The notes under the pieces: generated by a model | What the model saw: the letters and a program-made list of their open reading frames with translations, nothing else | The model's database searches: none | What the model was told of the DNA's origin: nothing | Shown here: positions 5,851-64,000 of the stretch, piece after piece | Numbering within the stretch: the first letter of the stretch is position 1 | How the letters are laid out: every line of letters begins with the position of its first letter | Program-made: the position numbers and the translations under genes | Origin: Candidatus Woesearchaeota archaeon | GTDB lineage: Archaea > Nanobdellota > Nanobdellia > SCGC-AAA011-G17 > PNOQ01 | Length of the DNA stretch: 64,000 bases | Direction of reading: 5' to 3' | NCBI GenBank assembly: GCA_964587005.1 | Contig: CAZPJW010000001.1 | Span: forward strand, 11,986 to 75,985

Positions 5851-6717
5851 ATGAATATTGAGAACGTAATAACCACCAAATATAAGAAACTATTAATTAT
5901 TCCATTAGTTTTATTATTAATAAGTTTAGCAATTCTAGGAATACAATATTCAAACAAAGGATACATAATAGAAAAAGATGTAACCCTCGCGGGAGGAGTA
6001 TCCGCAACACTAATTCTAGACGATTACAACAAAGAAAGTATACAACTATTACTAGAAGAAAACTTTCCCAATTCAGATATTTCACTAAGAGAATTATCTA
6101 ATCTGGGAACTGGGCAAAACACTGGCATAATAATAGACATTTCAGAAATCACAACAAAAGAATTAACACCTGTCCTCGAAGAAAATTTAGAATACTCTGA
6201 AATATCCATTCAAGAAATCGGACCATCCTTGGGAGCTTCTTTCTTCAAAGAAATGATTGGTGCAATAATATTCGCATTTATTTTAATGGGAATAACCATT
6301 TTCATAATTTTTAGAAAACTAGTTCCTTCCCTAGCCGTAATTTTTTCAGCAATTTTAGATTTAACCGTAACTCTTGCAATAATAAGTGTACTTGGTCTTA
6401 AAATATCTTCTGCCGGAATCGCAGCATTCCTTATGGTAATTGGTTACTCTGTTGATACAGATGTTTTACTCACAACAAGACTAATCCGAAGAAAAGAACT
6501 GGGCCCATTATATGAAAGGCTAAAAGGTGCATTCAAAACTGGAATGACAATGACTCTAACAACTATCGGGGCATTAACTGTCGGCCTAATAGTAACAAAC
6601 TCAATAATAATCAAACAAATGTTTGCAATTATCCTAATAGCATTAGTTGTAGACATAATTTCAACATGGATTATGAACACGTCTCTATTAATGTGGTACA
6701 TAAAGAAAAATGATTAA
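5851..6717 (+). CDS. secF: Protein-export membrane protein SecF
   Basis: TM1, then a periplasmic domain with a GG motif (KDVTLAGGVSATLILDD), then a 5-TM SecD/F core (GPSLGASFFKEMIGAIIFAFILMGITIFIIFR...). Start moved to MNIENVITTKYKK at 5851 because the track ORF (from 5755) overlaps trm56 on the other strand. Confidence 0.75.
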   Translation: MNIENVITTKYKKLLIIPLVLLLISLAILGIQYSNKGYIIEKDVTLAGGVSATLILDDYNKESIQLLLEENFPNSDISLRELSNLGTGQNTGIIIDISEITTKELTPVLEENLEYSEISIQEIGPSLGASFFKEMIGAIIFAFILMGITIFIIFRKLVPSLAVIFSAILDLTVTLAIISVLGLKISSAGIAAFLMVIGYSVDTDVLLTTRLIRRKELGPLYERLKGAFKTGMTMTLTTIGALTVGLIVTNSIIIKQMFAIILIALVVDIISTWIMNTSLLMWYIKKND

Positions 6718-8278
6718 AAAATTATTCAAAAGTGTAAGGATATGGATATTACTCTTCTTCTTACTAATTAGTTATATCGCAATAAACCCAGCACTTTCAC
6801 CAGAAGGAGTTTCAATAAAATCTGTAGATCCAAATTCCGAAGCATACTTTGCAGGAATGAGATCTCCCCAACAAGAAATCGCTCCAACAAACTATGAAGT
6901 AATTGAAAGGATAAACGGAGAAACAATTACAAATTTGGCAGACTATCTCGATATAACATCCCAAATACAAATTCAAGAATCTGTAAGAATAGAAACAGAT
7001 AATCAAATTTATTCTCTAATAAAAGAAACAGAGGACATGGGACTAATAGTTACTGATGTAGCTGGAACAAATATAAGAAAAGGTTTAGAATTACAAGGAG
7101 GAACAAGAGTTCTTCTACAACCAAAAGAAGAAATAACAAACCAACAACGTGACGATTTAATTCAAGTAATGGATAATAGACTAAACACTTACGGCCTATC
7201 CGACATTACAATAAGAAAAACAGATGACCTTCTTGGAAATAAATATATCCTTGTAGAAATTGCGGGAGCAACAAAACAAGAAGTTTCAGAATTAATTGCT
7301 TCACAAGGAAAATTCGAAGCAAAAATTGCCAATGAAACAGTTTTCTCTGGCGGAAAAGAGGACATAACATTCGTTTGTAGAGAAGATGGAAAATGTGCGG
7401 GAGTAACTCAGTGTGCTGAAGACCCATCAACCGGAACAGAGCAATGTAGATTTGAATTTGTAATTCATTTATCTCAAAAAGCAGCAGAAAATCACGCTCG
7501 AATAACATCCGAACTAGACATAATAACACTTGAGGGCGGACACCAAGTTCTCTCTGAAAAAATTGACTTTTACCTAGATGATACTTTAATAGATTCATTA
7601 AATATTGATTCAGACCTAAAAGGTTCAACAACAACACAAATACAAATAACCGGCCCAGGAATTGGAGAAACAAGACAAGAAGCAGTCTTAGCAGCACAAC
7701 AACAAATGAATCACTTACAAACTGTTTTACTAACCGGCTCATTTCCATTTGAATTAGAAATAGTAAAACTCGATACAATCTCTCCAACATTGGGAGCTTC
7801 ATTCATAAACAACGCAATAAAAGTTGGAGCACTTGCAATCCTAACCGTAGCATTAATTATTTTCATAAGATATAGAAATCTAAAAATTGCAATTCCAATG
7901 GTAATTGGTTCTTTATCAGAAGTAATTATTATTCTAGGAATCTCCGCACTAATGAATAGAAATCTAGACATGGCAGCAATAGCCGGAATAGTTGCAGCAG
8001 TAGGAACAGGAGTAGACGATCAAATCGTAATCATAGACGAAATAGTTACAAAAGCAGAAGCATTCGCCATTTCCTGGAAACAAAGATTAAAGAAAGCTTT
8101 CTTCATTATTCTAGCTGCCTTCTTCACTACTTTAGTAGCAATGCTTCCCTTATTAAGGGCGGGAGCAGGATTGCTAAAGGGATTTGCAATCATAACAATA
8201 ATAGGTATAATAATCGGAGTATTCGTAACAAGGCCAGCCTTCGCAGTAATGATTGAAACCTTAATGAAAAAAGAATAA
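6710..8278 (+). CDS. secD: Protein-export membrane protein SecD
   Basis: 522 aa. N-terminal TM, a large extracytoplasmic domain, and a C-terminal 5-TM SecD/F-type core (LGASFINNAIKVGALAILTVALIIFIRYRN...). Overlaps secF by 8 nt, consistent with an operon. Confidence 0.75.
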   Translation: MIKKLFKSVRIWILLFFLLISYIAINPALSPEGVSIKSVDPNSEAYFAGMRSPQQEIAPTNYEVIERINGETITNLADYLDITSQIQIQESVRIETDNQIYSLIKETEDMGLIVTDVAGTNIRKGLELQGGTRVLLQPKEEITNQQRDDLIQVMDNRLNTYGLSDITIRKTDDLLGNKYILVEIAGATKQEVSELIASQGKFEAKIANETVFSGGKEDITFVCREDGKCAGVTQCAEDPSTGTEQCRFEFVIHLSQKAAENHARITSELDIITLEGGHQVLSEKIDFYLDDTLIDSLNIDSDLKGSTTTQIQITGPGIGETRQEAVLAAQQQMNHLQTVLLTGSFPFELEIVKLDTISPTLGASFINNAIKVGALAILTVALIIFIRYRNLKIAIPMVIGSLSEVIIILGISALMNRNLDMAAIAGIVAAVGTGVDDQIVIIDEIVTKAEAFAISWKQRLKKAFFIILAAFFTTLVAMLPLLRAGAGLLKGFAIITIIGIIIGVFVTRPAFAVMIETLMKKE

Positions 8279-11637: not shown

Positions 11638-11652
11638 TTTTTTTATTAAAAA
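11638..11652. terminator. Oligo-T/oligo-A tract serving as a bidirectional archaeal terminator
   Basis: aatttttttattaaaaa lies directly after the stop of the + strand gene at 11637. It also lies directly after the 3' end of the minus-strand tRNA, giving a U5 run on the minus strand. Confidence 0.4.
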
Positions 11653-11778
11653 CGCCGGGACTGGGATTTGAACCCAGATGCCCGAAGGCCCGGTTTGCTC
11701 ACAATCTGATTCGAGATTCACCGATAATACAAATCATTGTAAAATCTCCGGTGCAATACCAGATTATGCGATCCCGGC
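11653..11778 (-). tRNA. Intron-containing tRNA (126 nt), class-II-like architecture; candidate tRNA-Ser(CGA); no encoded CCA
   Basis: Reverse-complement gives acceptor GCCGGGA / UCCCGGC (7 perfect bp) and discriminator G. D arm is GCA-UAAUCUGGUAU-UGC (3-bp stem, long loop with GG). T arm is CUGGG-UUCAAAU-CCCAG. A variable-arm hairpin GCC-UUCG-GGC precedes the T stem. The gene carries about 42 nt more than a mature class-II tRNA. A candidate anticodon loop CUCGAAU sits 37-43 nt after position 26. Exon-intron boundaries were not resolved by hand. Confidence 0.6.
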
Positions 11779-12445
11779 ATACGTATTAATTTTCATTCTT
11801 TTTACGGGATGATTAAACCCAATCAACCTTGCAAACTTTATAATATTTTCTTTTTCCGAAATAACCAAAATATAATTTGTATTCCAATTCTCATTTTTCC
11901 TTACATACATATAAAGATTAGAACTCACTCCAAGAGAAGCCAACAAAAACTTTATTTCTTCAATTCCAGATTTATTTACAGATTGTACATCTATCCTATT
12001 CTTTCCAACATATCCCTCACAATCATAAAAGGCTCTAATAAATTCAATCTTACATTCTCTAGACTCAAAAATAAATTTAGGAATTTCCCAGTTCAAAGTA
12101 CCAAACGTAGAAAGCTCTTTCAAATGAGAAGCAACAACTTTAGAATTAATGTTTACACTAAAATGATTGATCTCTTCCCTAATAGTGGGTACCTTACTAT
12201 AAATTTGACTGAATGTATCAACGTAAAGTTGAGCTAGTTCCAGCACATCTGGATAAAAAGAAATTATATATCTCATAGCATTTCTACTTTTCTCCTTACC
12301 AACAATCAAGCTACCATCACCAGCTAAAAAACCACAAAGTCTAGCTAATTTAATATCATCTGCATTTATCTTACTCTTTTCAAGTTCATGAATTTTCTTC
12401 CATCTTGAAATAGCAACATTCCTATTCCTCTCACAAATATCCATA
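11764..12445 (-). CDS. Double-motif LAGLIDADG homing endonuclease family protein (free-standing; stop codon inside the tRNA)
   Basis: Two LAGLIDADG-type motifs: LARLCGFLAGDGSL and FIRAFYDCEGYVG. Start trimmed to MDICERN (ATG at 12445), which sits about 20 nt downstream of a TATATAAAC box. The track ORF extends further 5' but would overlap aglB. The last five codons plus UAA are tRNA nt 1-15 (...TYAGIA*). Confidence 0.7.
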
Positions 12446-53870: not shown

Positions 53871-54722
53871 TTAGAAAAATAAGGGTGTTAGATAAACTTC
53901 AATAAACGCAGCAATAATCAAAATAGCAACAGCAATTAAGCTCAAATCTAGAGCATCCTTCAAAATCCCTTTAAATTTTGCTCCCTCCAAATCTCTATTA
54001 ATCATAGCAACAGAGATTATCCCTCCTGCCAAACCTGCAATAAAATATGCCGCAATCTCCGGAATACCATGTAGGGCGTATCTAAACAGCCCGAGTGACA
54101 AAAATTGAAAATAATGAAATATATTAGTGGCTCCCGCCGCTAAAGCAACCTCTGCCAGTTTATCTTTAACAAATGTACCAATTGCTGCACCAATAACAGA
54201 AGCATTCCAAGTCAGAATAAATATTGCCCCGGCACCATAAAAGAAAGAAAAAAACAAACAAAACAACATAACTTTAAAATTATTAAAAAATATTTGTAAA
54301 AAAACTCCTCCCGAACTAATTGCTGCTCCCGAAATCTGATTATTTATCGCCTCTATTGTTTGAAGTTGTGAAGAAAACAAATTCTGAACCATAGAACCAG
54401 GCAAAACTATAAACCACAAAGAATACGCCAAAACATAACCCATAAACAAAGCCAACAAGTATTTTATAACATGGGCATGTTCTTTTAAAATTTCCCCCTC
54501 ATTTTTTAACTCAATATCAACTTTCTCTTCCCTCTTAATAGATTTATACATAAAAGGAATAGAAGCAATTACAGTAAGAAAAACCATAATCATACTTGGA
54601 GAGCTTCTAAAAATCCAGGTAGCTAAAAACAAAGCTATGCTAGCATATAAAAACCCCACAAAAAACATCCTACTGGGATGTTGAGCAGCCTTACTTGGGT
54701 TAATAATTGACTCCAAAGCCAT
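53871..54722 (-). CDS. Membrane protein, DUF95/SpoIIM-like
   Basis: 283 aa with 6 TM helices. Layout resembles the SpoIIM (DUF95) family. Confidence 0.4.
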   Translation of the reverse strand: MALESIINPSKAAQHPSRMFFVGFLYASIALFLATWIFRSSPSMIMVFLTVIASIPFMYKSIKREEKVDIELKNEGEILKEHAHVIKYLLALFMGYVLAYSLWFIVLPGSMVQNLFSSQLQTIEAINNQISGAAISSGGVFLQIFFNNFKVMLFCLFFSFFYGAGAIFILTWNASVIGAAIGTFVKDKLAEVALAAGATNIFHYFQFLSLGLFRYALHGIPEIAAYFIAGLAGGIISVAMINRDLEGAKFKGILKDALDLSLIAVAILIIAAFIEVYLTPLFF

Positions 54723-56455: not shown

Positions 56456-56487
56456 ACTTTTTTAAACCCAAAAAATAAAATTTACTT

Positions 56488-57291
56488 ATGAATAAATTCA
56501 ATAAAATTTACAAAGACATAAAATCTCTAAAAACACAGGGGGCCAACAATATAGCACTGGCCGGGTTAAGTGCATTAGAATTAAATCCTTCTAAAAAATC
56601 AATAAAGAAGATATTATCCACGAGACCAACAGAACCCACTCTAAAAAATGCAATAACTTTTGCTAGATTAACTGATATAGAAACTGCGAAAAATTATTTA
56701 TTAGATTCAAAAAAAAGGACAATTGAACTAACATCATCACTCATAAAAAATAATCAAAAAATATTCACCCACTGCCATTCATCTACTATAGTGGATGCTC
56801 TAAAAGAAGCCAAAAAACAAGGAAAGAAGTTTGAAGTACTAAACACAGAAACAAGACCAATATACCAAGGTAGAAAAACTTCTTTAGAATTAGCAAAAGC
56901 AAAAATAAAGAATACTCATTTCGTAGACTCTGGGGCAGAAGAAGCGATTTCCCGGTCAGACATAATCCTTCTTGGGGCAGATATGATTGCTCCTACGGGA
57001 GAAATTGCAAATAAAATAGGCTCGGAATTAATAGCGAAGCTAGCAAAACAACATAAAGTCCCAGTGTACATAGTAACAAGTGCATGGAAATACTCTCCAA
57101 AAAAACTAAAAATAGAAGAAAGAGACCCAAAAGAAGTATGGAACAAAAAAAATAAATTCATAAACATACGAAATCCAGCATTCGAACTAATAAATCCAAA
57201 AGACATAACTGCGATAATCTCAGGATTAGGAATTCTAAAACCAAAAAAACTAACAAAAAAAATCAAAAAAACATATTCTTGGATAAAATGA
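56488..57291 (+). CDS. eIF-2B alpha/beta/delta-family protein, probable ribose-1,5-bisphosphate isomerase
   Basis: N-terminal GANNIALAGLSALEL and C-terminal LGADMIAPTGEIANKIGSELIAKLAKQHKVPVYIVTSAWKY match the IF-2B / MtnA family. Confidence 0.55.
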   Translation: MNKFNKIYKDIKSLKTQGANNIALAGLSALELNPSKKSIKKILSTRPTEPTLKNAITFARLTDIETAKNYLLDSKKRTIELTSSLIKNNQKIFTHCHSSTIVDALKEAKKQGKKFEVLNTETRPIYQGRKTSLELAKAKIKNTHFVDSGAEEAISRSDIILLGADMIAPTGEIANKIGSELIAKLAKQHKVPVYIVTSAWKYSPKKLKIEERDPKEVWNKKNKFINIRNPAFELINPKDITAIISGLGILKPKKLTKKIKKTYSWIK

Positions 57292-57923
57292 TAATTTGCT
57301 TCGATTTAGATGGAACTTTAGTAAATACAGAAAAATGGATAGTTGACGCAACAATAGCCGCCCTAAAAAAACATAATCTAAAAATAAAAAAAGAAGATTT
57401 ATACAAACAATGGGGGGAGGTCTTACATACTGCATTAAAGAAATCATATCCAAAACTAACAAAAGCAGAGATAGAAGAAATAATTATAGATTTCGAAATA
57501 GAACGAAAAAACACAATACATAAAATAAAACCTTTCAAAAATACAAAAAAAATTCTAAAAGAATTATCAAAAAAGTATACGCTATGTATACTAAGTAACA
57601 ATCCTCACCCAGTTATAACCAAAATATTAAAAATTGCAAAGATAGATAAAAATTTATTTTCAATAATCATAGGGGATGATGAAGTAAAACGACCAAAACC
57701 ATTTCCAGATGAGATATATAAAGCAGAGAGAAAATTCAAAAAAAAGATACAGTTCATGGTTGGAGACTCAAAACAAGATATAAAAACTGCAAAAGCAGCA
57801 AGAGTAAAATCTATAATTATCTTAACCACTCCAAAACCATACTGGAAAAATTTAAAAGAAGCAGACTACAAAATTAAAGATATAAAAGAAATTCCCAAAC
57901 TAATAAAAGAGGTAATCAGATGA
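57279..57923 (+). CDS. HAD-superfamily phosphatase
   Basis: MIICFDLDGTLVNT is HAD motif I (DxDGT). Downstream LSNN and GD motifs. Confidence 0.7.
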   Translation: MDKMIICFDLDGTLVNTEKWIVDATIAALKKHNLKIKKEDLYKQWGEVLHTALKKSYPKLTKAEIEEIIIDFEIERKNTIHKIKPFKNTKKILKELSKKYTLCILSNNPHPVITKILKIAKIDKNLFSIIIGDDEVKRPKPFPDEIYKAERKFKKKIQFMVGDSKQDIKTAKAARVKSIIILTTPKPYWKNLKEADYKIKDIKEIPKLIKEVIR

Positions 57924-59212
57924 GTCAATATTTAGATTTCGTAGATTTAAAATACAAACCAAGAAAAACAGATCTAATTTGCACATTTAGATTTGAACAA
58001 GCCAAGGGTATTTCAAAGAAAGAAGCAATTGGTAGAATAGCAGCAGAATCTTCGAATGGTACTTGGACAACCTTATCCACATTAAGACCCCATATAAGAA
58101 GAATAAGGGCAAGAGCATATAATGTGCAATCAAACTATGTAAAAATAGCATACCCCTTAGAACTATTCGAACTTGGAAACATGCCTCAATTGTTGAGCTC
58201 AATCGCTGGAAATATATTTGGTATGAAAGCAATAACTAATTTAAGACTAGAAGACATCTCATTCCCAAAAAAATATATAAATTCTTTCAGGGGTCCACAA
58301 TATGGAATAAAAGGCATCAGAAAATACATGAAAATAAAAAAGAGGCCAATGACTGCAACCGTTCCAAAGCCAAAAGTGGGCATGACAACAAAAGAACACA
58401 CCAAGGTGGCTTACGACGCATGGTCGGGGGGAATAGACTTTTTGAAAGACGATGAAAACTTAACTTCTCAAAACTTCAACAAATTCGAGAAAAGAGTAAA
58501 AACATGTTCAAGAGCAAGAGACAAAGCAGAAAAAGAAACAGGTGAAAAGAAAGACTATTTCATAAATGTTTCCGCAGAAACAAAAGAAATGCTAAAAAGA
58601 ACAGAACTAGCAAAAATTCATGGATTCAAGTATGTGATGTGTGATATTCTAACAGTTGGCTGGTCTGGACTCCAAACATTAAGAGACGAAACCAAAAAAT
58701 TAAAAATGGCAATTCATGCCCACAGAGCATTCCATGCGGCATTTGATAGAAACCCAAAACACGGAATGTCAATGTTAGCAATAGCAAAATTATCAAGATT
58801 AATTGGCGTAGACAATATCCACATAGGAACCGTTATTGGAAAGTTAGTTGGAACAAAAGACGAAGTTTTACAAATCGAAGATGAGATAACACAACAGGTA
58901 GAAAAACCACTAAAATCAGAAAAGAGCATACTCAACCAGTCTTGGTATGGACTAAAAGATACAATTCCAGTTTCATCAGGAGGTCTACATCCTGGATTAA
59001 TTCCCCAAATAACAAAAATGTTGGGAAATGATATCGTACTCCAATTAGGTGGAGGAATTCATGGGCATCCAAATGGGACTTACGAAGGGTCAAAAGCAAC
59101 TAGACAAGCAATAACTGCTACAATAAATAAAATTTCTTTAAAAAATTACTCACAAAAAAACAAAGAATTAAAATTTGCCCTAAACAAATGGGGATACACA
59201 AAACCAATATAA
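57920..59212 (+). CDS. rbcL: Ribulose-1,5-bisphosphate carboxylase/oxygenase large subunit, archaeal form III-like
   Basis: AAESSNGTWTT. TVPKPKVG (KPK). GGIDFLKDDENLTSQNF carries the carbamylated Lys and the Mg-ligand Asp/Glu. IHAHRAFHAA. GGGIHGHPNG. Length 430 aa. Confidence 0.85.
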   Translation: MSQYLDFVDLKYKPRKTDLICTFRFEQAKGISKKEAIGRIAAESSNGTWTTLSTLRPHIRRIRARAYNVQSNYVKIAYPLELFELGNMPQLLSSIAGNIFGMKAITNLRLEDISFPKKYINSFRGPQYGIKGIRKYMKIKKRPMTATVPKPKVGMTTKEHTKVAYDAWSGGIDFLKDDENLTSQNFNKFEKRVKTCSRARDKAEKETGEKKDYFINVSAETKEMLKRTELAKIHGFKYVMCDILTVGWSGLQTLRDETKKLKMAIHAHRAFHAAFDRNPKHGMSMLAIAKLSRLIGVDNIHIGTVIGKLVGTKDEVLQIEDEITQQVEKPLKSEKSILNQSWYGLKDTIPVSSGGLHPGLIPQITKMLGNDIVLQLGGGIHGHPNGTYEGSKATRQAITATINKISLKNYSQKNKELKFALNKWGYTKPI

Positions 59213-59249
59213 CAAAAAGGTTTATAAATTTACCAACCAAACTCTAATC

Positions 59250-60272
59250 ATGAAACTACTAAAATTTGCAGATTATGGAAGATTCTTATTCTTCGCAGCA
59301 CTAATAGTATTTCTGTATGGGACATACAAAATAATCGCCCCATTCATTGCAGCAATAATGGCAGCAATTGTATTATCCATAGTATGTTATCCAGTATATA
59401 CAAAAATAAACAACAAACTAAAGAAAAAAAACATTTCCGCAATAATAGTAGTTGTATTGCTTCTCTTATTAATAACCATCCCCGGAATATTCTTTGCAAA
59501 TACTCTTTTACATGAAGCAATAAATATCTACAACTCGGTAGGAAGTCTGGATCTCCCGGTTTACTCAGAAAAACTAAAAGAAATAACTGGGCTAAACATA
59601 GAATTCGATAGATACCTCTCTGAAACAATAAAAGATTTCTCCAATATCTTTATCCAGTCTAGTACAAATATGATAAGATTTCTCGCAACGGGCTTCATTC
59701 ACATATTCATAGCGTTCTTCACAATGTTCTTCTTGCTAAGGGATGGAAAAAAACTATCAGAATCACTAAAAAAAGGAATCCCTCTTTCTGCCTACCAAAA
59801 AATAAGATTCTTCAAGGGAACAGTAGATAGAATAAATGGTATCTTTCTCGGCTTCTTAGGAATAGGTATAGCAGAATTTCTTGCAGCGTTGATAGGGTTT
59901 ACAATCTTTAAGGTGCCAAATCCCCTATTGTGGGCACTGATGATAGCAATTTTTGCATATATCCCATTACTCGGGCCCGCAGCAATATGGCTCCCCTCAG
60001 CAATATATCTTTTCATACAAGGAGAAACAACCAGTGCAATATTACTAGCTGTATACTTCGGAGCAATACTTAGTTTTTACATGGACAATATACTAAGGGC
60101 CCAATTAATAGGAAAGACTGCCAAAATCCATCCAGCCGTATCAATAATAGGTATTTTTGGAGGACTAAAATTATTCGGAATAGTTGGGCTTGTTGTAGGT
60201 CCATTAATACTTTCTTTATTTGTACTTTTGTATACTCTCTACCTCGAAGAAAATGATAACACTAAAAGCTAA
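59250..60272 (+). CDS. AI-2E family transporter (UPF0118/PerM-like permease)
   Basis: 340 aa, 7-8 TM helices. Family-typical layout with a long central helix pair and the C-terminal LFGIVGLVVGPLIL. Confidence 0.6.
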   Translation: MKLLKFADYGRFLFFAALIVFLYGTYKIIAPFIAAIMAAIVLSIVCYPVYTKINNKLKKKNISAIIVVVLLLLLITIPGIFFANTLLHEAINIYNSVGSLDLPVYSEKLKEITGLNIEFDRYLSETIKDFSNIFIQSSTNMIRFLATGFIHIFIAFFTMFFLLRDGKKLSESLKKGIPLSAYQKIRFFKGTVDRINGIFLGFLGIGIAEFLAALIGFTIFKVPNPLLWALMIAIFAYIPLLGPAAIWLPSAIYLFIQGETTSAILLAVYFGAILSFYMDNILRAQLIGKTAKIHPAVSIIGIFGGLKLFGIVGLVVGPLILSLFVLLYTLYLEENDNTKS

Positions 60273-61725
60273 AGATGTAAAGTTGTCTACGGGTGGCCCC
60301 TTAATTGCAATACTCAACCAAAAGGACGCACAAAGGCTAAATCTACAAGCACTAGATAGGATAAAAATAACTCGTGGTAAAAAAGAAGTAGTCGCAGCAG
60401 TAGACATATCAGAATCAACAGGAATAAAAAAGGGCCAAATAGGTTTATTCAAAGAACTTATAGAAGAACTTGAATTAAAGAAACCCATTCTATTAAAGAT
60501 TTCAACATCTCAAGTACCAGAATCAATTGAAATAATAAAAAAGAAATTAGACAAAAAAGAATTATCAAAGAAAGAAATTTTTATGGTAATTGATAATCTC
60601 ACAAAAAATGAACTAACAGAAATAGAAATAACTTATTTTGTATCATCCTGTTACCTAAATGGGTTAACCGATGATGAAACTAGATATTTAACTCAAGCAA
60701 TAGTAAAATATGGAGATAAATTAGACCTCAATAAAAAAATAATCGCAGATAAACATTGTATTGGGGGAATTCCTAATAACAGAACAACGATGCTTGTCGT
60801 ACCAATTGTAGCGGCCGCAGGAATCACTATGGTAAAAACAAGCTCTAGGTCAATAACTTCCCCTGCAGGAACAGCAGACACAATGGAGTCGCTAGCAAAA
60901 GTAGAATTCACAACCCCGGAAATAAAAAAAATAATAAAAAAAATAAACAGCTGCATAGTATGGGGCGGAGCAATAGATTTAGCAAATGCTGATGAGAAAC
61001 TAATCAAAGTTCGACACCCATTAAGAATAGATCCAAAAGGTTTAATGTTGGCCTCAATTTTGGCAAAAAAAGCTGCCGTAAATTCAACGCACTTATTAAT
61101 TGACATACCGATAGGAAAAACAGCAAAAATCCAAACAAAAAAGCAAGCAAAGTCATTAAAAAAACACTTTGAAAAACTGGGAAAACAACTAAAGATAAAA
61201 ACAAAGGTCATAATCACAAATGGATCCCAACCTATAGGAAATGGAATTGGTCCAAATCTAGAAGCAAGAGATGTTTTATACATATTAAGAAAAGATTCCC
61301 AAGCACCAAAAGACCTAGAAAATAAATCTATTACTATGGCAGATGAAATATTTAAAATCACAAAAACAAAAGCATCCGCTAAAGATATTTTAAATTCTGG
61401 AAAAGCATATCAAAAATTCATAGAAATAATAGGTGCGCAAAGAGGAAACTCAAAAATTAAGCCAACCGACCTAAAATTGGGAAAACTTCAATCCACTATT
61501 AAATCACCTAGGGCAGGAAAAGTAGTAGAAATAGATAACAGAAAAATATCTAAGATAGCAAGACTTGCTGGATCACCTTATGATAAAGAAGCAGGAGTAT
61601 ATTTAAATATAAAATTAAAAGATAAAATTAAAAAAAATCAACCACTAATGACAATCTACTCAAATTCTAAAGCAAAATTAAATTCTGCAAAATCTGAAGT
61701 TAAAGGCGCAATAAAAATAAAATAA
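60253..61725 (+). CDS. deoA: AMP phosphorylase (thymidine-phosphorylase family with N-terminal extension)
   Basis: N-terminal MITLKAKDVKLSTGGPLIAILNQKDAQ. Pyrimidine-nucleoside-phosphorylase core HCIGGIPNNRTTMLVVPIVAAAG...SSRSITSPAGTADTME. Start moved to the internal Met at 60253 to remove overlap with the permease. Confidence 0.75.
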   Translation: MITLKAKDVKLSTGGPLIAILNQKDAQRLNLQALDRIKITRGKKEVVAAVDISESTGIKKGQIGLFKELIEELELKKPILLKISTSQVPESIEIIKKKLDKKELSKKEIFMVIDNLTKNELTEIEITYFVSSCYLNGLTDDETRYLTQAIVKYGDKLDLNKKIIADKHCIGGIPNNRTTMLVVPIVAAAGITMVKTSSRSITSPAGTADTMESLAKVEFTTPEIKKIIKKINSCIVWGGAIDLANADEKLIKVRHPLRIDPKGLMLASILAKKAAVNSTHLLIDIPIGKTAKIQTKKQAKSLKKHFEKLGKQLKIKTKVIITNGSQPIGNGIGPNLEARDVLYILRKDSQAPKDLENKSITMADEIFKITKTKASAKDILNSGKAYQKFIEIIGAQRGNSKIKPTDLKLGKLQSTIKSPRAGKVVEIDNRKISKIARLAGSPYDKEAGVYLNIKLKDKIKKNQPLMTIYSNSKAKLNSAKSEVKGAIKIK

Positions 61726-61726
61726 A

Positions 61727-61854
61727 CGCCGGGACTGGGATTTGAACCCAGATGCCCTTTCGGGCCTGGCTAACCTGTGTATTATTTCAAGGCTTACACT
61801 TCAGAGAGACTAACTCAGCTGAATCAGTGCAATACCAGATTATGCGATCCCGGC
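61727..61854 (-). tRNA. Intron-containing tRNA (128 nt), paralog of 11653..11778; candidate tRNA-Ser(UGA); no encoded CCA
   Basis: First 27 nt (acceptor GCCGGGA, D arm) and last 31 nt (GGGCAU + T arm CUGGG-UUCAAAU-CCCAG + UCCCGGC + G73) are identical to the first tRNA. Variable-arm hairpin GCCC-GAAA-GGGC differs compensatorily from GCC-UUCG-GGC. Candidate anticodon loop CUUGAAA sits at the same offset (37-43 nt after position 26) as CUCGAAU in the paralog. Confidence 0.6.
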
Positions 61855-62422
61855 ATAAGTTTTGTAATACAACGCTACTTTCATCTATATTTAAATTTAA
61901 CTGATAAGAGAAATATTTATTTTTTTGTATAACATTTTTAACTTCCTTGTTAAATCCCCAAATCTCTTCAATCATATGACTCAATCCCAATAATAACTCC
62001 TTACTAGCCATATGGAAATGGAGATTTCCTCGCTTATTTAATCCTCCATCTGTTAAAAACAAACCAAGAAAAAAAGATTTCTTAATGTCCTTATTTGCTT
62101 TAAGTATCAACTCCGGAACCTTTACTATTGCAGCTTTTTTGCCGAATGGAATTCCAATATTATAAACAAGATAATCAAAGATAGGTTTGGAGTAAATACG
62201 AAATTCATAAAGTATTTTTTTATTTGGCCTATGTCTTGAGTTTATCTTACCCTTTGACCCAAATAACTCAGAGTTAAGGTTTGAGAATAAATCTACATAT
62301 TCCCTCCGGGTATTCCAAAAAGCAATTGAATAAGTAGGATATCCAAAACCATTTTTTCTGTTTGATATAGAACCATCTCCAACAAGCATACCTAAAAATA
62401 AAGCCAGTTTATTCAAATCCAT
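61787..62422 (-). CDS. Double-motif LAGLIDADG homing endonuclease family protein; C-terminal 22 codons read through the tRNA
   Basis: Motifs LALFLGMLVGDGSI and FFLGLFLTDGGL. ATG at 62422 is 21 nt downstream of TTTATAAAC. The ORF terminates at a UGA formed by tRNA nt 66-68, in a different frame from the first cassette. Confidence 0.65.
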   Translation of the reverse strand: MDLNKLALFLGMLVGDGSISNRKNGFGYPTYSIAFWNTRREYVDLFSNLNSELFGSKGKINSRHRPNKKILYEFRIYSKPIFDYLVYNIGIPFGKKAAIVKVPELILKANKDIKKSFFLGLFLTDGGLNKRGNLHFHMASKELLLGLSHMIEEIWGFNKEVKNVIQKNKYFSYQLNLNIDESSVVLQNLCRDRIIWYCTDSAELVSLKCKP

Positions 62423-62443: not shown

Positions 62444-62484
62444 GTTTATAAATTATTTCTCTGTACGTGACAAGATGACAACTT
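62444..62484 (-). promoter_or_regulatory. TATA box (62444-62452) plus conserved upstream 22-bp motif (62463-62484), copy 2
   Basis: Minus strand reads AAGTTGTCATCTTGTCACGTAC, then 10 nt, then TTTATAAAC, then 21 nt, then ATG. Same spacing as at 12466-12506. Contains a direct hexamer repeat TTGTCA-TC-TTGTCA (TTGCCA-GC-TTGCCA in copy 1). Confidence 0.45.
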
Positions 62485-63136
62485 ACAAAACGCCCATAAT
62501 GTGATATGTCAAAGCAGTTCCAATTTTTATAGGATTATCTCCACTTTCAAATTCGGCAACAACACAATAATCATTCCCCTTATAAATTTGATTTGCACTT
62601 CCTTCTTTAAACCAAATAACAAACCTATTCTCATTAGCATTATTACATGTAAGAACAGGTAACTTTAATTCTCTAGTCCGTTCATTATCCTCAATAGAAG
62701 CCAATAAAGTAGGTATATTAAACGGAGCAGGTTCCAACATCTTCTGTCCAACAACCCTTTCAACAGTTAAAAGAGCAACAATCATTTTATTTTCATTTTC
62801 CAAGTCCAAATAAACATCCCTTGTAATATAAATGCTCTTAGCATTCTGAATATCATATCTAACCTTCTCAATAGGAATATCTTCCAACTCTTCAGGACCA
62901 TATTCAAAAGGAATTAAATATTTCTGCCAAAAATACCCAAATAATTTTTCATATTGCAAAATATGTACTTCATTCCCAGTGTGTTTGTCTAAAATAAAAT
63001 CAAAATCTGCAGTGACTCCTCCATAAATATATTCTGAATTTGTTCTGGAGTATATAGTATAGGTAACAGCAAAAGCAACAATAAATACAAGAACTATAAG
63101 GACTGCTGCTATAGATTTTTCTTGTTTTTTATCCAT
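62483..63136 (-). CDS. Small N-terminally anchored secreted protein (paralog pair, member 1)
   Basis: 217 aa. K/E-rich N-terminus then TM (IAAVLIVLVFIVAFAVTYTIY). C-terminus ...ALTYHIMGVL resembles the neighbour's ...GLFYKILGVI. Confidence 0.45.
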   Translation of the reverse strand: MDKKQEKSIAAVLIVLVFIVAFAVTYTIYSRTNSEYIYGGVTADFDFILDKHTGNEVHILQYEKLFGYFWQKYLIPFEYGPEELEDIPIEKVRYDIQNAKSIYITRDVYLDLENENKMIVALLTVERVVGQKMLEPAPFNIPTLLASIEDNERTRELKLPVLTCNNANENRFVIWFKEGSANQIYKGNDYCVVAEFESGDNPIKIGTALTYHIMGVL

Positions 63137-63631
63137 TTAAATCACACCAAGTATTTTATAAAATAATCCATCCATTAATTTTATTTCATTATTTCCTTCT
63201 AAATAGACACAATTCTCTTCTTTATAAATTTTATTATACCCTTCTCCAGAAAACACAAAATTAATAGATTCAGAAGAACAATCCAAATCCCCCTCATCAA
63301 GCCTAGTCACCAAAACTCCCAATAAAGCAAACCTATTGCTAAACTCATAGTAATACAAATCGCTCATATCCCCCACTAAATAAACAACTCCACCAATCTC
63401 TCCACCCACATTAACATCAAAATCAATCTCACTAGGTAAATAATTAAATAAAAAATCCTGGTTTAATTCCTTTATATAAACGGACCAACCATTGCCGGTA
63501 TTCTTAAACTTATAATCATTAATTGTCTTAGTTTCACCAGAACCACCATACATAAAACCCACTGTACTAGAAATCATTAAAAAAGCCACAAAAATGCCCA
63601 TATAAACTTTTTTCTTATCTTCCTTTTTCAT
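63137..63631 (-). CDS. Small N-terminally anchored secreted protein (paralog pair, member 2)
   Basis: 164 aa. MKKEDKKK N-terminus then TM (VYMGIFVAFLMISSTVGFMY). Shared C-terminal motif with 62483..63136. Confidence 0.45.
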   Translation of the reverse strand: MKKEDKKKVYMGIFVAFLMISSTVGFMYGGSGETKTINDYKFKNTGNGWSVYIKELNQDFLFNYLPSEIDFDVNVGGEIGGVVYLVGDMSDLYYYEFSNRFALLGVLVTRLDEGDLDCSSESINFVFSGEGYNKIYKEENCVYLEGNNEIKLMDGLFYKILGVI

Positions 63632-63708
63632 AATAGAATAATGAATAAATCTCTATTTAAAAATCTTTTCAAAAATCAAACAAAAAAAGAAAGAAAAAGT
63701 GTAGAGTT

Positions 63709-64000
63709 TTACTCTACAATTACTTCTGTACCAGTTAGGCCACCTGCGGCTAATTTCTCTGCTGCTTTCTTGGTATCTTCTATTTCCCATCCAGCAACAA
63801 TCAGAGCAGTTTTACCTGCATCTTCAATTAACTTTAGCAATCCTTTGTTCTCTGTTATCGTTGAAGCAGCTTCACATGCAGGGTATGTTAGTCCCATGTA
63901 ATCAGCTGTTAAGCTATTTACACATGGCCCACCTACAAGGATTAAGTTATCGTATCCTGCAGCACCACTTTCAGTAGTCAACATTGCTTCTACAGTAGAT
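63709..64000 (-). CDS. Cell-surface (possibly S-layer-related) protein, C-terminal fragment (gene continues past window end)
   Basis: Open minus-strand frame from the window end to a stop at 63709. C-terminal sequence ...NLILVGGPCVNSLTADYMGLTYP...LAAGGLTGTEVIVE. The VGGP-x-VN pattern is reminiscent of archaeal surface-layer proteins, recalled only loosely. Confidence 0.3.
   Translation of the reverse strand, partial: STVEAMLTTESGAAGYDNLILVGGPCVNSLTADYMGLTYPACEAASTITENKGLLKLIEDAGKTALIVAGWEIEDTKKAAEKLAAGGLTGTEVIVE

Follow-up and report, generated by a model that had tools for sequence, protein, structure and literature searches.

A probable AMP-pathway cluster of five genes, including form III-b RuBisCO, HAD phosphatase and AI-2E permease, in a Woesearchaeota-type DPANN archaeon

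The genes and their products

The window, a 64,000-nt stretch of a Candidatus Woesearchaeota contig, carries five co-directional ORFs on the + strand between positions 56488 and 61725. They encode, in order, an isomerase, an HAD-IA phosphatase, RuBisCO, an AI-2E permease and an AMP phosphorylase. The features are:

56459..56466, + strand: TATA-like box TTTTTAAA, putative unit 1 promoter, some 22-29 nt upstream of the isomerase ATG
56488..57291, + strand: compact ribose-1,5-bisphosphate (R15P) isomerase, e2b2/IF-2B family, 267 aa (Pfam IF-2B, E 1e-44)
57288..57923, + strand: HAD-IA (COG0546/Gph-like) phosphatase, 211 aa (Pfam HAD_2), 4-nt overlap with the isomerase stop
57920..59212, + strand: form III-b RuBisCO large subunit, 430 aa (TIGR03326), 4-nt overlap with the HAD stop
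59221..59228, + strand: TATA-like box TTTATAAA, putative internal unit 2 promoter, some 22-29 nt upstream of the permease ATG
59250..60272, + strand: AI-2E family (PerM/TqsA-type) membrane permease, 340 aa (Pfam PF01594, E 1e-47)
60253..61725, + strand: AMP (NMP) phosphorylase, 490 aa (TIGR03327, NF003338), 20-nt overlap with the permease 3' end

The first-pass annotation had described a cluster of all three AMP-pathway enzymes with an HAD phosphatase and an AI-2E permease inserted between them. All five ORFs are found where it placed them and have strong family matches, including those of the two inserted genes (HAD_2, E 2e-31; AI-2E_transport, E 1e-47). Its ORFs were correct, but two start codons were not. 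The HAD gene starts at ATG 57288 (211 aa) rather than TTG 57279, and the AMP phosphorylase gene at ATG 60253 (490 aa) rather than TTG 60220. These corrections rest on public gene calls for the identical contig and on HMM alignment starts.

RuBisCO matches the Pfam RuBisCO_large N-terminal (E 1e-42) and catalytic (E 2e-83) domains. The KPK, KDDE, HAHRAFH, SGG and GGG-HP motifs quoted at first pass are all present and map onto the active site of the Thermococcus kodakarensis (Tk) enzyme, on which 19 of the 19 canonical active-site residues are kept. Its best PDB matches are archaeal form III enzymes (6hun, 2cwx, 1geh), the Tk enzyme among them (E 1e-124). The earlier label "form-III-like" was right as to form III and wrong as to a separate III-like group; relatives in nr are labelled "Form III-b", which makes this a bona fide archaeal form III-b enzyme. 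A form IV RuBisCO-like protein was rejected, since the catalytic Lys, Asp and Glu all align and the protein passes the TIGR03326 type III equivalog cutoff (601 bits, cutoff 497). On the enolase/RLP models it is far below cutoff (229 vs 409 bits).

AMP phosphorylase contains Glycosyl-transferase-3 and PYNP_C domains and scores 536.6 bits on TIGR03327 (cutoff 535) and 554 on NF003338 (cutoff 434). Residues 25-490 match the crystal chain of the Tk AMP phosphorylase (PDB 4ga5, E 3e-112) at chain residues 12-480. The alignment begins at chain residue 12, and thus the protein includes the archaeal N-terminal extension that had been noted. The permease scores below cutoff on the NCBIfam YtvI and YdiK equivalogs; JGI names one cluster member "predicted PurR-regulated permease PerM".

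The isomerase belongs to the eIF-2B family, as first described, and is short, at 267 aa vs 322-324 aa. It lacks about 45 residues relative to the Tk and Pyrococcus (Ph) enzymes, of which about 31 belong to the lid domain, and is about 55 aa shorter overall than the Tk enzyme. This short form is standard in Woesearchaeota and Pacearchaeota and is no peculiarity of the present genome. The best PDB matches to the family profile are the Ph and Tk R15P isomerases, over the full length (E 3e-58), followed by aIF2B-like proteins (4e-39), MtnA (2e-33) and eIF2B alpha (4e-31). The AF2 model (pLDDT 92.8) superposes on ligand-bound 5yft with a TM of 0.90. A translation-factor eIF2B subunit was rejected on these profile E-values, on this TM and on the invariant catalytic Cys and Asp. 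The proposed check of the catalytic Cys and Asp against the Tk enzyme found both kept; C96 and D165, with the phosphate-binding R46, K176, K201 and R212, are invariant across the family.

It is very unlikely that the cluster lacks an AMP pathway altogether, with the IF-2B protein an aIF2B-like translation factor or methylthioribose-1-phosphate isomerase and the RuBisCO homologue active in a different sugar-phosphate or methionine-salvage reaction. In favour of such a reading are the isomerase scores, which reach the equivalog cutoff of no specific model (144 bits against 314 for the R15P isomerase model TIGR00511), and the loss of three basic phosphate-contacting residues of the Tk enzyme (R20 to Q, K24 to N, K136 to S), whose roles are described in PMC6423476. 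Yet the profile E-value for R15P isomerase is 25 orders of magnitude better than that for MtnA, RuBisCO retains a complete carboxylase active site and scores low on the enolase/RLP models, as given above, and the NMP phosphorylase of the same cluster carries the N-terminal domain specific to AMP phosphorylases. The isomerase gene also adjoins RuBisCO, mostly with AMP phosphorylase too, in Micrarchaeota, Thaumarchaeota, Bathyarchaeia and Aenigmarchaeota.

The HAD protein keeps the DxDxT, S-N, K-P and GDxxxD motifs. Among NCBIfam models, PpaX and phosphoglycolate phosphatase (PGP) rank highest, and all specific equivalogs are well below cutoff. The closest solved relatives by profile are 2yy6 and 2nyv, COG0546 "phosphoglycolate phosphatases" (E 3e-27); the PGP labels on 2yy6, 2nyv and 2hsz are structural-genomics predictions. 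A fold search with the AF2 model (pLDDT 94.3) does not discriminate among PGP, pyrophosphatase, CbbY and the sugar phosphatases. Candidate substrates are 2-phosphoglycolate, ribulose-1,5-bisphosphate (RuBP) and xylulose bisphosphate.

Two-unit layout and its conservation

The genes appear to be transcribed as two units, [isomerase-HAD-RuBisCO] and [AI-2E permease-AMP phosphorylase], with translational coupling inside each unit and a separate putative TATA-box promoter in front of it. We favor this model because the boxes are conserved and the junctions overlap. A box equivalent to TTTTTAAA, which has an A-rich BRE-like stretch just upstream, lies at -27 to -32 from the isomerase ATG in nearly all of the about 25 diverged relatives listed. 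An equivalent of TTTATAAA lies at about -27 to -38 in 23 of the 23 relatives listed, including L063, a locus without the pathway genes. The isomerase/HAD junction is a 4-nt overlap in 22 of 28 loci, HAD and RuBisCO abut or overlap in 24 of 25, and AI-2E and AMP phosphorylase overlap by 11-20 nt in all 22. The RuBisCO/AI-2E junction has a positive gap in every locus (37-2768 nt). A T-run stands immediately after the stop codon of the gene upstream of unit 1.

Enzyme identities are clear from sequence and fold, and activities are predicted from orthologues characterised in Thermococcus and Pyrococcus. With high probability the cluster encodes, in these two units, the archaeal AMP (NMP) degradation shunt, or pentose bisphosphate pathway, of a marine Woesearchaeota-type DPANN archaeon. 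AMP phosphorylase would convert AMP, or another NMP, and phosphate to free base and ribose-1,5-bisphosphate. The compact isomerase would convert the latter to RuBP, and the form III-b RuBisCO would combine RuBP with CO2 and water to yield two 3-phosphoglycerate for lower glycolysis. The ribose of AMP would in this way be turned into a glycolysis intermediate via RuBisCO. The pathway itself is already known, DPANN included, and the core is ordinary. The point of interest is the accessory HAD and permease pair, a modest question.

The two-unit gene order is common to about 30 non-redundant Woesearchaeota-type relatives, with HAD identity down to 35%; because of this recurrence, the clustering is not due to chance. 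A RuBisCO-centred scan found the order in all Woesearchaeota-type relatives sampled, and an independent HAD-centred scan found it in 20 of 20 loci with an HAD at least 48% identical. This HAD subfamily is almost confined to the slot between isomerase and RuBisCO. Four RuBisCO lineages occupy one and the same cluster slot, which indicates in-place replacement, and HAD stays beside the slot even after the lineage swap. Such replacement agrees with the work of Jaffe et al., in which RuBisCO moved laterally and deoA and e2b2 track the organism (PMC6389311). HAD and the AI-2E permease are conserved, lineage-specific passengers of the cluster. Two loci, L063 and L097, carry a bare HAD-AI-2E pair without isomerase, RuBisCO or AMP phosphorylase. 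The shared two-unit layout, the HAD slot restriction, the four-lineage slot and the bare pair were not found in the literature searched.

The window resembles the AMP-pathway sets of CPR and DPANN genomes in lineage type, pathway and form III-b label (Wrighton 2016, PMC5113843; Jaffe 2018, PMC6389311). Those two studies looked only at how close the three pathway genes lie to one another, and describe tight clustering and fusions for form III-c in CPR. An HAD phosphatase or transporter inside the cluster is unmentioned in both, and the word "transporter" has 0 occurrences in the PMC6389311 text.

The AMP-pathway genes are dispersed in the T. kodakarensis genome, whereas those of the window are clustered in two coupled units. 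The three enzyme families are the same (TK0353 AMP phosphorylase, TK0185 R15P isomerase and TK2290 form III RuBisCO; Sato 2007; Aono 2012, 2015, as cited in PMC6389311 and PMC9700705), with the catalytic residues, the AMP phosphorylase N-terminal domain and form III-b RuBisCO in common. The shorter isomerase with Q for R20 and the interleaved HAD and permease genes are unlike T. kodakarensis.

Possible roles of the HAD-permease pair

As a tentative best guess, at a little under even odds, HAD and the AI-2E permease would work together on some small by-product of the pathway, as a dephosphorylate-and-export pair. The single most likely HAD substrate may be 2-phosphoglycolate from the RuBisCO oxygenase reaction. 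The COG0546 identity of the nearest solved HAD relatives, and the retention of HAD beside the slot after RuBisCO lineage swaps, speak for this guess. In T. kodakarensis, form III RuBisCO yields 2-phosphoglycolate, the phosphatase TK1734 removes it and glycolate is excreted; no glycolate exporter is named in that work (PMC11032457). The logic of oxygenase by-product, phosphatase and export would be the same here, with HAD and AI-2E serving. TK1734, in turn, belongs to the plant PGLP type of HAD and TK2301 is Ta0175-like; neither is Gph-type, and TK1734 adjoins a rubrerythrin gene, not RuBisCO.

In bacterial cbb operons, cbbZ encodes a Gph-type 2-phosphoglycolate phosphatase and cbbY a xylulose-1,5-bisphosphate phosphatase. 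The window likewise has an HAD-IA gene beside RuBisCO, and its product is closest to the COG0546/Gph group. The cbb operons, however, belong to the Calvin cycle and its form I or II RuBisCO, whereas here HAD lies upstream of form III, reaches no PGP equivalog cutoff and has a permease as its partner. Bracher et al. (2015) are said to have described CbbY as an HAD-IA enzyme encoded beside RuBisCO in these operons. That shared family and position, and a significant fold match to CbbY (4uar, TM 0.77), would fit a CbbY-like HAD that clears the RuBisCO misfire inhibitor xylulose-1,5-bisphosphate. We consider this quite improbable: CbbY ranks just 40 in the fold search and is missing from the best 60 sequence-profile hits, so that its E-value exceeds 3e-7, against 3e-27 for Gph-type entries, and bare HAD-AI-2E pairs exist without RuBisCO.

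Haloarchaea have a non-carboxylating pentose bisphosphate pathway of R15P isomerase, HAD RuBP phosphatase and FucA-type aldolase (PMC9700705). Compared by description, the likeness is an HAD phosphatase encoded with R15P isomerase. The gene for that HAD-superfamily RuBP phosphatase is in operon with the isomerase in Halorubrum species (PMC9700705), and here HAD directly follows the isomerase with a 4-nt overlap. HAD could then be a RuBP 5-phosphatase, giving RuBP a CO2-independent outlet via ribulose-1-phosphate. This, too, seems improbable. In the 17 haloarchaeal species the enzyme occurs with R15P isomerase and without RuBisCO, which it replaces, and in all 17 it is in operon with a FucA-type ribulose-1-phosphate aldolase (PMC9700705), whereas here RuBisCO is always downstream of HAD and no nearby aldolase was seen; the Pfam-annotated gene lists for the loci of six relatives hold no class II aldolase gene.

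Somewhat unlikely, but well above these two, is an older, self-standing housekeeping pair of this archaeal lineage with which the three AMP genes became interleaved; the co-location would then reflect conserved gene order in small genomes and no shared biochemical task. In L063 the pair stands alone at the corresponding syntenic position, flanked by SpoIIM and the S-layer region; in L097 it stands alone elsewhere, flanked by a Pelota/aRF1-like gene and an Hjc gene. The whole neighbourhood is syntenic across relatives, with SpoIIM on the upstream side and two small ORFs plus an S-layer gene on the downstream side, and AI-2E has its own promoter-like box. Against this, the isomerase/HAD, HAD/RuBisCO and AI-2E/AMP phosphorylase overlaps persist down to 35-50% identity and survive even RuBisCO replacement by another lineage. 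All 20 HAD subfamily members of the HAD-centred scan lie in the module, and unrelated genes are inserted between RuBisCO and AI-2E but almost never within either block. As for the dephosphorylate-and-export role, the bare pairs speak against it, in that RuBisCO at that locus cannot be a strict requirement for the function of the pair. At first pass, phosphatase and permease had been taken to suggest nucleotide or nucleoside scavenging tied to transport, which is a putative role. Since it occurs without pathway genes, the pair may be a semi-independent unit.

Module identity and the pathway enzymes

Five co-directional open reading frames lie at 56488-61725 of the window, exactly where the first-pass annotation had located a ribose-1,5-bisphosphate (R15P) isomerase-like protein, a HAD phosphatase, a RuBisCO, an AI-2E permease, and an AMP phosphorylase. 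Pfam and NCBIfam matches confirm all five families. The starts of the HAD and AMP phosphorylase genes were set from public gene calls and HMM alignment starts.

Genes of the module, in order
From 56488, plus strand: isomerase; IF-2B family protein, Pfam E 1e-44
From ATG 57288, plus strand: HAD phosphatase; HAD-IA hydrolase, Pfam E 2e-31
Third gene, plus strand: RuBisCO large subunit; type III equivalog TIGR03326, 601.1 bits against a cutoff of 497.45
Fourth gene, plus strand: permease; AI-2E transporter, Pfam E 1e-47
From ATG 60253 to 61725, plus strand: AMP phosphorylase; TIGR03327 passed marginally (536.6 against 535), NF003338 clearly (554 against 434)

The window is AT-rich and archaeal, with a G+C content of about 29-38%, and also encodes aTrm56, the oligosaccharyltransferase AglB/STT3, SecDF, and a large surface-glycan gene island. 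The identical contig occurs in several public metagenomes, and the five module proteins are already present, without names, in NCBI, JGI, ENA, and Logan (contig up to 104,849 bp). The three-enzyme core is the established AMP / pentose bisphosphate pathway and is ordinary, with nothing new to biology. The AMP pathway with a form III-b RuBisCO is already published for DPANN archaea, having been described since 2015-2018. In the literature searched (open-access papers only), no report was found of a HAD or AI-2E gene inside an AMP-pathway cluster. What is apparently undescribed is the architecture, which is conserved and lineage-specific and combines a pair of coupled units, two accessory genes, a compact isomerase in which Gln replaces an Arg, and a RuBisCO slot that appears to have been refilled repeatedly.

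The isomerase had been flagged as short, at 267 aa, and this length is not an oddity of one genome. More than 100 clusters (90% identity) of 258-296 aa from sources labelled Woesearchaeota, Pacearchaeota, and Nanoarchaeota share the compact form. A profile built from 41 family members matches the verified R15P isomerases of Pyrococcus horikoshii (3e-58) and Thermococcus kodakarensis (4e-57) end to end, with weaker matches to aIF2B-like 1vb5 (4e-39), MtnA (2e-33), and eIF2B alpha (4e-31). Relative to the verified enzymes, 14 and 17 residues are deleted from the helical N-terminal lid domain, and the C-terminal domain is shortened by deletions of 3, 5, and 5 residues. Coinciding with these deletions in both domains, the protein scores 144.3 bits on TIGR00511 and misses the curated equivalog cutoff of 314.1.

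Alignment to the T. kodakarensis enzyme (TK0185) places C96 (in THCHS) and D165 (in GAD) on the catalytic C133 and D202, and both are invariant in the 41 family members. The T. kodakarensis phosphate-binding residues are R20, K24, R63, S135, K136, K213, K238, and R254 (PMC6423476). Five of the eight are kept, R63 as R46, S135 as S98, K213 as K176, K238 as K201, and R254 as R212, all invariant in the family. The other three, all basic, are replaced: R20 by Q17 (a near-invariant Gln), K24 by N21, and K136 by S99. In Foldseek searches with an AlphaFold model of the protein (pLDDT 92.8), the first 13 hits are without exception R15P isomerase chains, led by the ligand-bound closed form 5yft at a TM-score of 0.90. 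From its active site, modelled fold, and gene context, the 267-aa protein is most plausibly a compact R15P isomerase, with predicted activity. A translation factor or MtnA is rejected on profile, fold, and gene context; the first-pass annotation had named an eIF2B subunit as the alternative, and both profile and Foldseek favor the R15P isomerases. Public names for compact isomerases vary among 'ribose 1,5-bisphosphate isomerase', 'translation initiation factor eIF-2B', and 'hypothetical protein'. This inconsistency follows from scores under the curated cutoff, and automated pathway surveys could therefore undercount the AMP pathway in DPANN.

Aligned to the T. kodakarensis enzyme, the RuBisCO keeps all canonical active-site residues, corresponding to E49 through G392 of that enzyme. 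In the window protein these are E43, T48, W49, N98, K150, K152, K176 (the carbamylation site), D178, and E179 in the first half, and H268, R269, H272, H301, K308, S353, G354, G355, G377, and G378 in the second. The carboxylase site is thus complete, with the carbamylated Lys, the Asp/Glu Mg ligands, KPK, the His-Arg pair, the loop-6 Lys, and the phosphate-binding Ser/Gly residues. The protein scores 254 on the form II model (cutoff 489) and 229 on the MtnW enolase model (cutoff 409). A form IV RuBisCO-like protein lacking the catalytic Lys/Asp/Glu, the alternative raised earlier, is rejected on the strength of the complete active site and of enolase-model scores far under the cutoffs. The best-ranking solved relatives, from Hyperthermus butylicus (6hun, E 1e-140), P. 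horikoshii (2cwx), and T. kodakarensis (1geh), are archaeal form III (III-b) enzymes. Relatives at 63-71% identity carry the nr label 'RuBisCO long chain, Form III-b', and others in nr are named after Woesearchaeota or Pacearchaeota. By these labels and structural matches, the protein probably belongs to form III-b, with carboxylase activity predicted.

The AMP phosphorylase was said to carry the archaeal N-terminal extension, a domain of ~85 residues that is absent from thymidine and pyrimidine phosphorylases. The T. kodakarensis AMP phosphorylase 4ga5 aligns with the window protein (E 3e-112) from chain residue 12, and alignment of the N-terminally truncated construct 4ga4 starts only at query residue 99. 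The domain is therefore present.

Operon layout and the RuBisCO slot

The junctions between the five genes are tight except for one. They were counted in about 30 non-redundant relatives, and in several genomes one to four unrelated genes occupy the gap between RuBisCO and permease.

Gene junctions in the window and in the relatives
Isomerase to HAD: 4-nt overlap of stop and start in the window; 4-nt overlap in 22/28 loci
HAD to RuBisCO: 4-nt overlap of stop and start in the window; 0 or overlap in 24/25 loci, exactly 4 nt in 18
RuBisCO to permease: 37-nt spacer in the window; gap always positive, 37-2768 nt
Permease to AMP phosphorylase: 20-nt overlap of the permease 3' end with the AMP phosphorylase start in the window; 11-20 nt overlap in 22/22 loci

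Two TATA-like boxes lie ahead of the isomerase and permease genes.

56459-56466: TATA-like box TTTTTAAA, some 22-29 nt ahead of the isomerase ATG, A-rich on its upstream side, after a T-run behind the preceding gene
59221-59228: TATA-like box TTTATAAA, about 22-29 nt before the permease ATG

In relatives the box position is kept at about -27 to -32 for the isomerase gene and about -27 to -38 for the permease gene. From these junctions and boxes we infer that the genes are transcribed as two translationally coupled units, [isomerase-HAD-RuBisCO] and [permease-AMP phosphorylase], whose leaders would be short or absent.

To map the spread of this layout, homologues of the five module proteins were located around RuBisCO in 55 loci, with one genome per species. 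The co-localization noted in the first-pass annotation holds well beyond this contig.

Gene order around RuBisCO by lineage (as labelled)
Micrarchaeota: isomerase-RuBisCO-AMP phosphorylase
Thaumarchaeota: AMP phosphorylase-isomerase-RuBisCO
Bathyarchaeia: AMP phosphorylase and isomerase flank RuBisCO on the opposite strand
Pacearchaeota: RuBisCO alone, mostly
Woesearchaeota-type: HAD and permease present, five-gene order

By these orders, the three pathway genes cluster widely among archaea, and the five-gene arrangement is lineage-specific. An independent, HAD-centred scan of JGI metagenome contigs returned 20 loci whose HAD shares 48% identity or more. The isomerase lies directly upstream of the HAD in all 20, and wherever the contig suffices RuBisCO comes next, followed by permease-AMP phosphorylase. 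The remaining matches share no more than 28% identity and are generic HADs outside the module context. The HAD subfamily is small and compact, with 82 clusters at E <=1e-10.

RuBisCO and the frame genes around it (isomerase, HAD, and AMP phosphorylase) do not diverge in step across loci. The relative's locus L065 shares 54% identity with the window in the isomerase and 60% in both the HAD and the AMP phosphorylase, but only 39% in the RuBisCO. This 466-aa RuBisCO is a divergent form III-like protein (372 against the type III cutoff of 497) that keeps the catalytic motifs. Two other loci, L008 and L009, have frame genes about as diverged as those of L065, yet share 74-75% identity with the window in RuBisCO. 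A comparison of 190 locus pairs shows that, where the frame genes match at 52-64% identity, identity in RuBisCO has a bimodal distribution, with 64-88% within groups and 43-60% between groups. Four RuBisCO groups, which also sit apart on a neighbour-joining tree, share the one slot between HAD and permease (loci L062, L064, L065, and L077-L080 compared with the window), and the flanking isomerase, HAD, and AMP phosphorylase genes of those loci diverge smoothly. Four lineages in one slot between smoothly diverging flanks indicate that RuBisCO was probably swapped laterally, in place, within a fixed operon position. The HAD remains tied to the slot through these replacements. Lateral movement of RuBisCO has been inferred from incongruent trees by Jaffe et al. 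(PMC6389311), and the refilled slot would be a clean illustration of such replacement at the level of a single locus.

The HAD phosphatase and the AI-2E permease

The two accessory genes bear on how organisms without a Calvin cycle handle RuBisCO side-products or excess pentose bisphosphates. A HAD gene beside RuBisCO has precedent in cbbZ and cbbY, the HAD phosphatase genes of bacterial cbb operons. HAD motifs I-IV are present in the window protein, with D6, D8, S103-N104, K137, G159-D160, and D164 invariant or nearly so among 28-32 family members; T10 and S103-N104 each occur in at least 90%. With all four catalytic motifs in place, the protein should be an active phosphatase. Its profile best matches COG0546/Gph-type 'phosphoglycolate phosphatase' (PGP) structures (2yy6/2nyv, E 3e-27; 2hsz, 8e-23), names that are themselves annotations, and matches beta-phosphoglucomutase and the BT2127 pyrophosphatase at around 1e-8. 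The HAD falls under every specific NCBIfam equivalog cutoff (TIGR01449, 68 against 180; NF009695, 78 against 225; PpaX, 90 against 218). Its model (pLDDT 94.3) has a generic C1-capped HAD-IA fold, with which Foldseek does not separate PGP, pyrophosphatase, CbbY, and sugar phosphatases; predicted PGPs rank first. A CbbY-like phosphatase, for which the cbb operons give the analogy, is highly improbable here, given that CbbY is not among the best 60 profile matches and ranks 40th by fold.

The permease matches PF01594 over residues 13-328, on profile positions 2-323 of 327. It misses the cutoffs of all characterized AI-2E subfamilies (YtvI, 108 against 198; YdiK, 69 against 305) and is placeable at family level only.

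The leading, though tentative, reading is that the HAD and the permease dephosphorylate and export a by-product of the pathway, most likely 2-phosphoglycolate. In T. kodakarensis, the 2-phosphoglycolate produced by the oxygenase activity of the form III RuBisCO is dephosphorylated and the glycolate is then excreted; the phosphatases responsible belong to HAD subfamilies other than that of the window protein and do not adjoin RuBisCO (PMC11032457). In a more specific version, the two would form a dedicated disposal device, the Gph-type HAD dephosphorylating the 2-phosphoglycolate that RuBisCO makes in its oxygenase side reaction and the permease exporting the glycolate. We consider this version unlikely. 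Such disposal would let a host-dependent DPANN archaeon run a nucleotide-to-3PGA shunt in low-oxygen water, and the sample names of relatives (e.g., SI048) hint at a possible marine low-oxygen setting. If true, the module would hold an operon-encoded, photorespiration-like detoxification unit linked to a form III RuBisCO, and the poorly understood AI-2E family would gain a physiological substrate. The coupling of the permease to AMP phosphorylase would also fit export of released bases. T. kodakarensis running the AMP pathway is reported to accumulate bases in its medium (PMC12628685).

The pair also occurs bare. In the relative's locus L063 (7001-8690), HAD and AI-2E genes stand at the same syntenic site as the module, between SpoIIM and the S-layer region, and the isomerase, RuBisCO, and AMP phosphorylase are missing at this locus. 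In L097 (369-1999), the pair lies between a Pelota/aRF1-like gene and an Hjc gene, and the pathway genes are likewise missing at the locus. These occurrences are evidence against a strictly RuBisCO-dependent role. They are still compatible with 2-phosphoglycolate as substrate, since it arises without RuBisCO too. It also forms in the repair of oxidized DNA ends, the role assigned to Gph of Escherichia coli. The same bare pairs would be expected of an unrelated housekeeping pair, an explanation that we find somewhat doubtful; the HAD stays with the slot as RuBisCO is exchanged.

A different substrate is offered by haloarchaea, in which a ribulose-1,5-bisphosphate (RuBP) 5-phosphatase of the HAD type (Halxa_2271 type) shares an operon with R15P isomerase in Halorubrum (PMC9700705). 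The species that have it possess R15P isomerase and no RuBisCO, and in 17/17 of them it shares an operon with a FucA-type aldolase (PMC9700705). That the window HAD is a RuBP phosphatase of this type is very unlikely. RuBisCO follows the HAD wherever the contig extends in both the RuBisCO- and HAD-centred scans, and the Pfam-annotated gene lists of six relatives' loci hold no class II aldolase. A search for R15P isomerase operons on haloarchaeal plasmids gave two megaplasmid hits, both aIF2B-like genes that neighbour neither a HAD nor an aldolase gene.

Flanking genes, tRNAs, and a homing endonuclease

The module sits in a conserved setting. Upstream, a SpoIIM-family membrane protein keeps its synteny across relatives, as do the downstream genes, two small ORFs without annotation (about 217 and 164 aa) and then an S-layer protein (PF05124 in public gene calls). 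No RNA gene in the window came up in default ARAGORN or Rfam scans; two tRNA genes were found by ARAGORN only with introns allowed.

Features outside the module
11652-11779, minus strand: tRNA-Lys(UUU) with a 51-nt intron
12488-53830: glycan island of ~40 kb, surface glycosylation genes
53871-54722, minus strand: SpoIIM-family membrane protein
61726-61855, minus strand: tRNA called as tRNA-Cys(ACA), with a 39-nt intron
61787-62422, minus strand: free-standing LAGLIDADG homing-endonuclease ORF, 211 aa (LAGLIDADG_3, E 2e-12)
62483-63984, minus strand: two small ORFs and the S-layer protein

Genes of the glycan island were annotated at 12-26 kb and, at about 46-52 kb, read from the identical public contig; both stretches carry glycan-synthesis genes. 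It contains AglB/STT3, many GT2 and GT4 glycosyltransferases, PMT-like mannosyltransferases, DegT aminotransferases, a FemAB-like protein, NUDIX proteins, a MurJ/Wzx-type flippase, and a 720-aa fused oxidoreductase/nucleotidyltransferase/NUDIX protein. On its flanks are large secreted proteins (PKD, CARDB, and Big_7) with abundant N-x-S/T sequons.

In L066, the locus of the closest relative (RuBisCO 93% identical), ~308 nt separate the isomerase and HAD (6690-7000, protein P0243). The insert is in frame with the HAD, giving a 104-aa N-terminal extension with an HExxH-like motif (HHEWIH), and may represent either a small gene inserted there or an artefact of gene calling.

The tRNA gene at 61726-61855 has its 3' end 1 nt away from the stop codon of AMP phosphorylase. 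Its long extra arm (GCCC-GAAA-GGGC) and the C at position 37 cast doubt on the Cys identity; the gene may encode a class II tRNA, or a second, non-canonical intron may account for the arm. The last ~22 codons of the homing-endonuclease ORF overlap the 5' part of this tRNA gene. The ORF is present in the identical public contigs and looks like a recent mobile insertion beside the tRNA gene, because it is absent at the same position in the relatives' loci L005, L062, L064, and L065.
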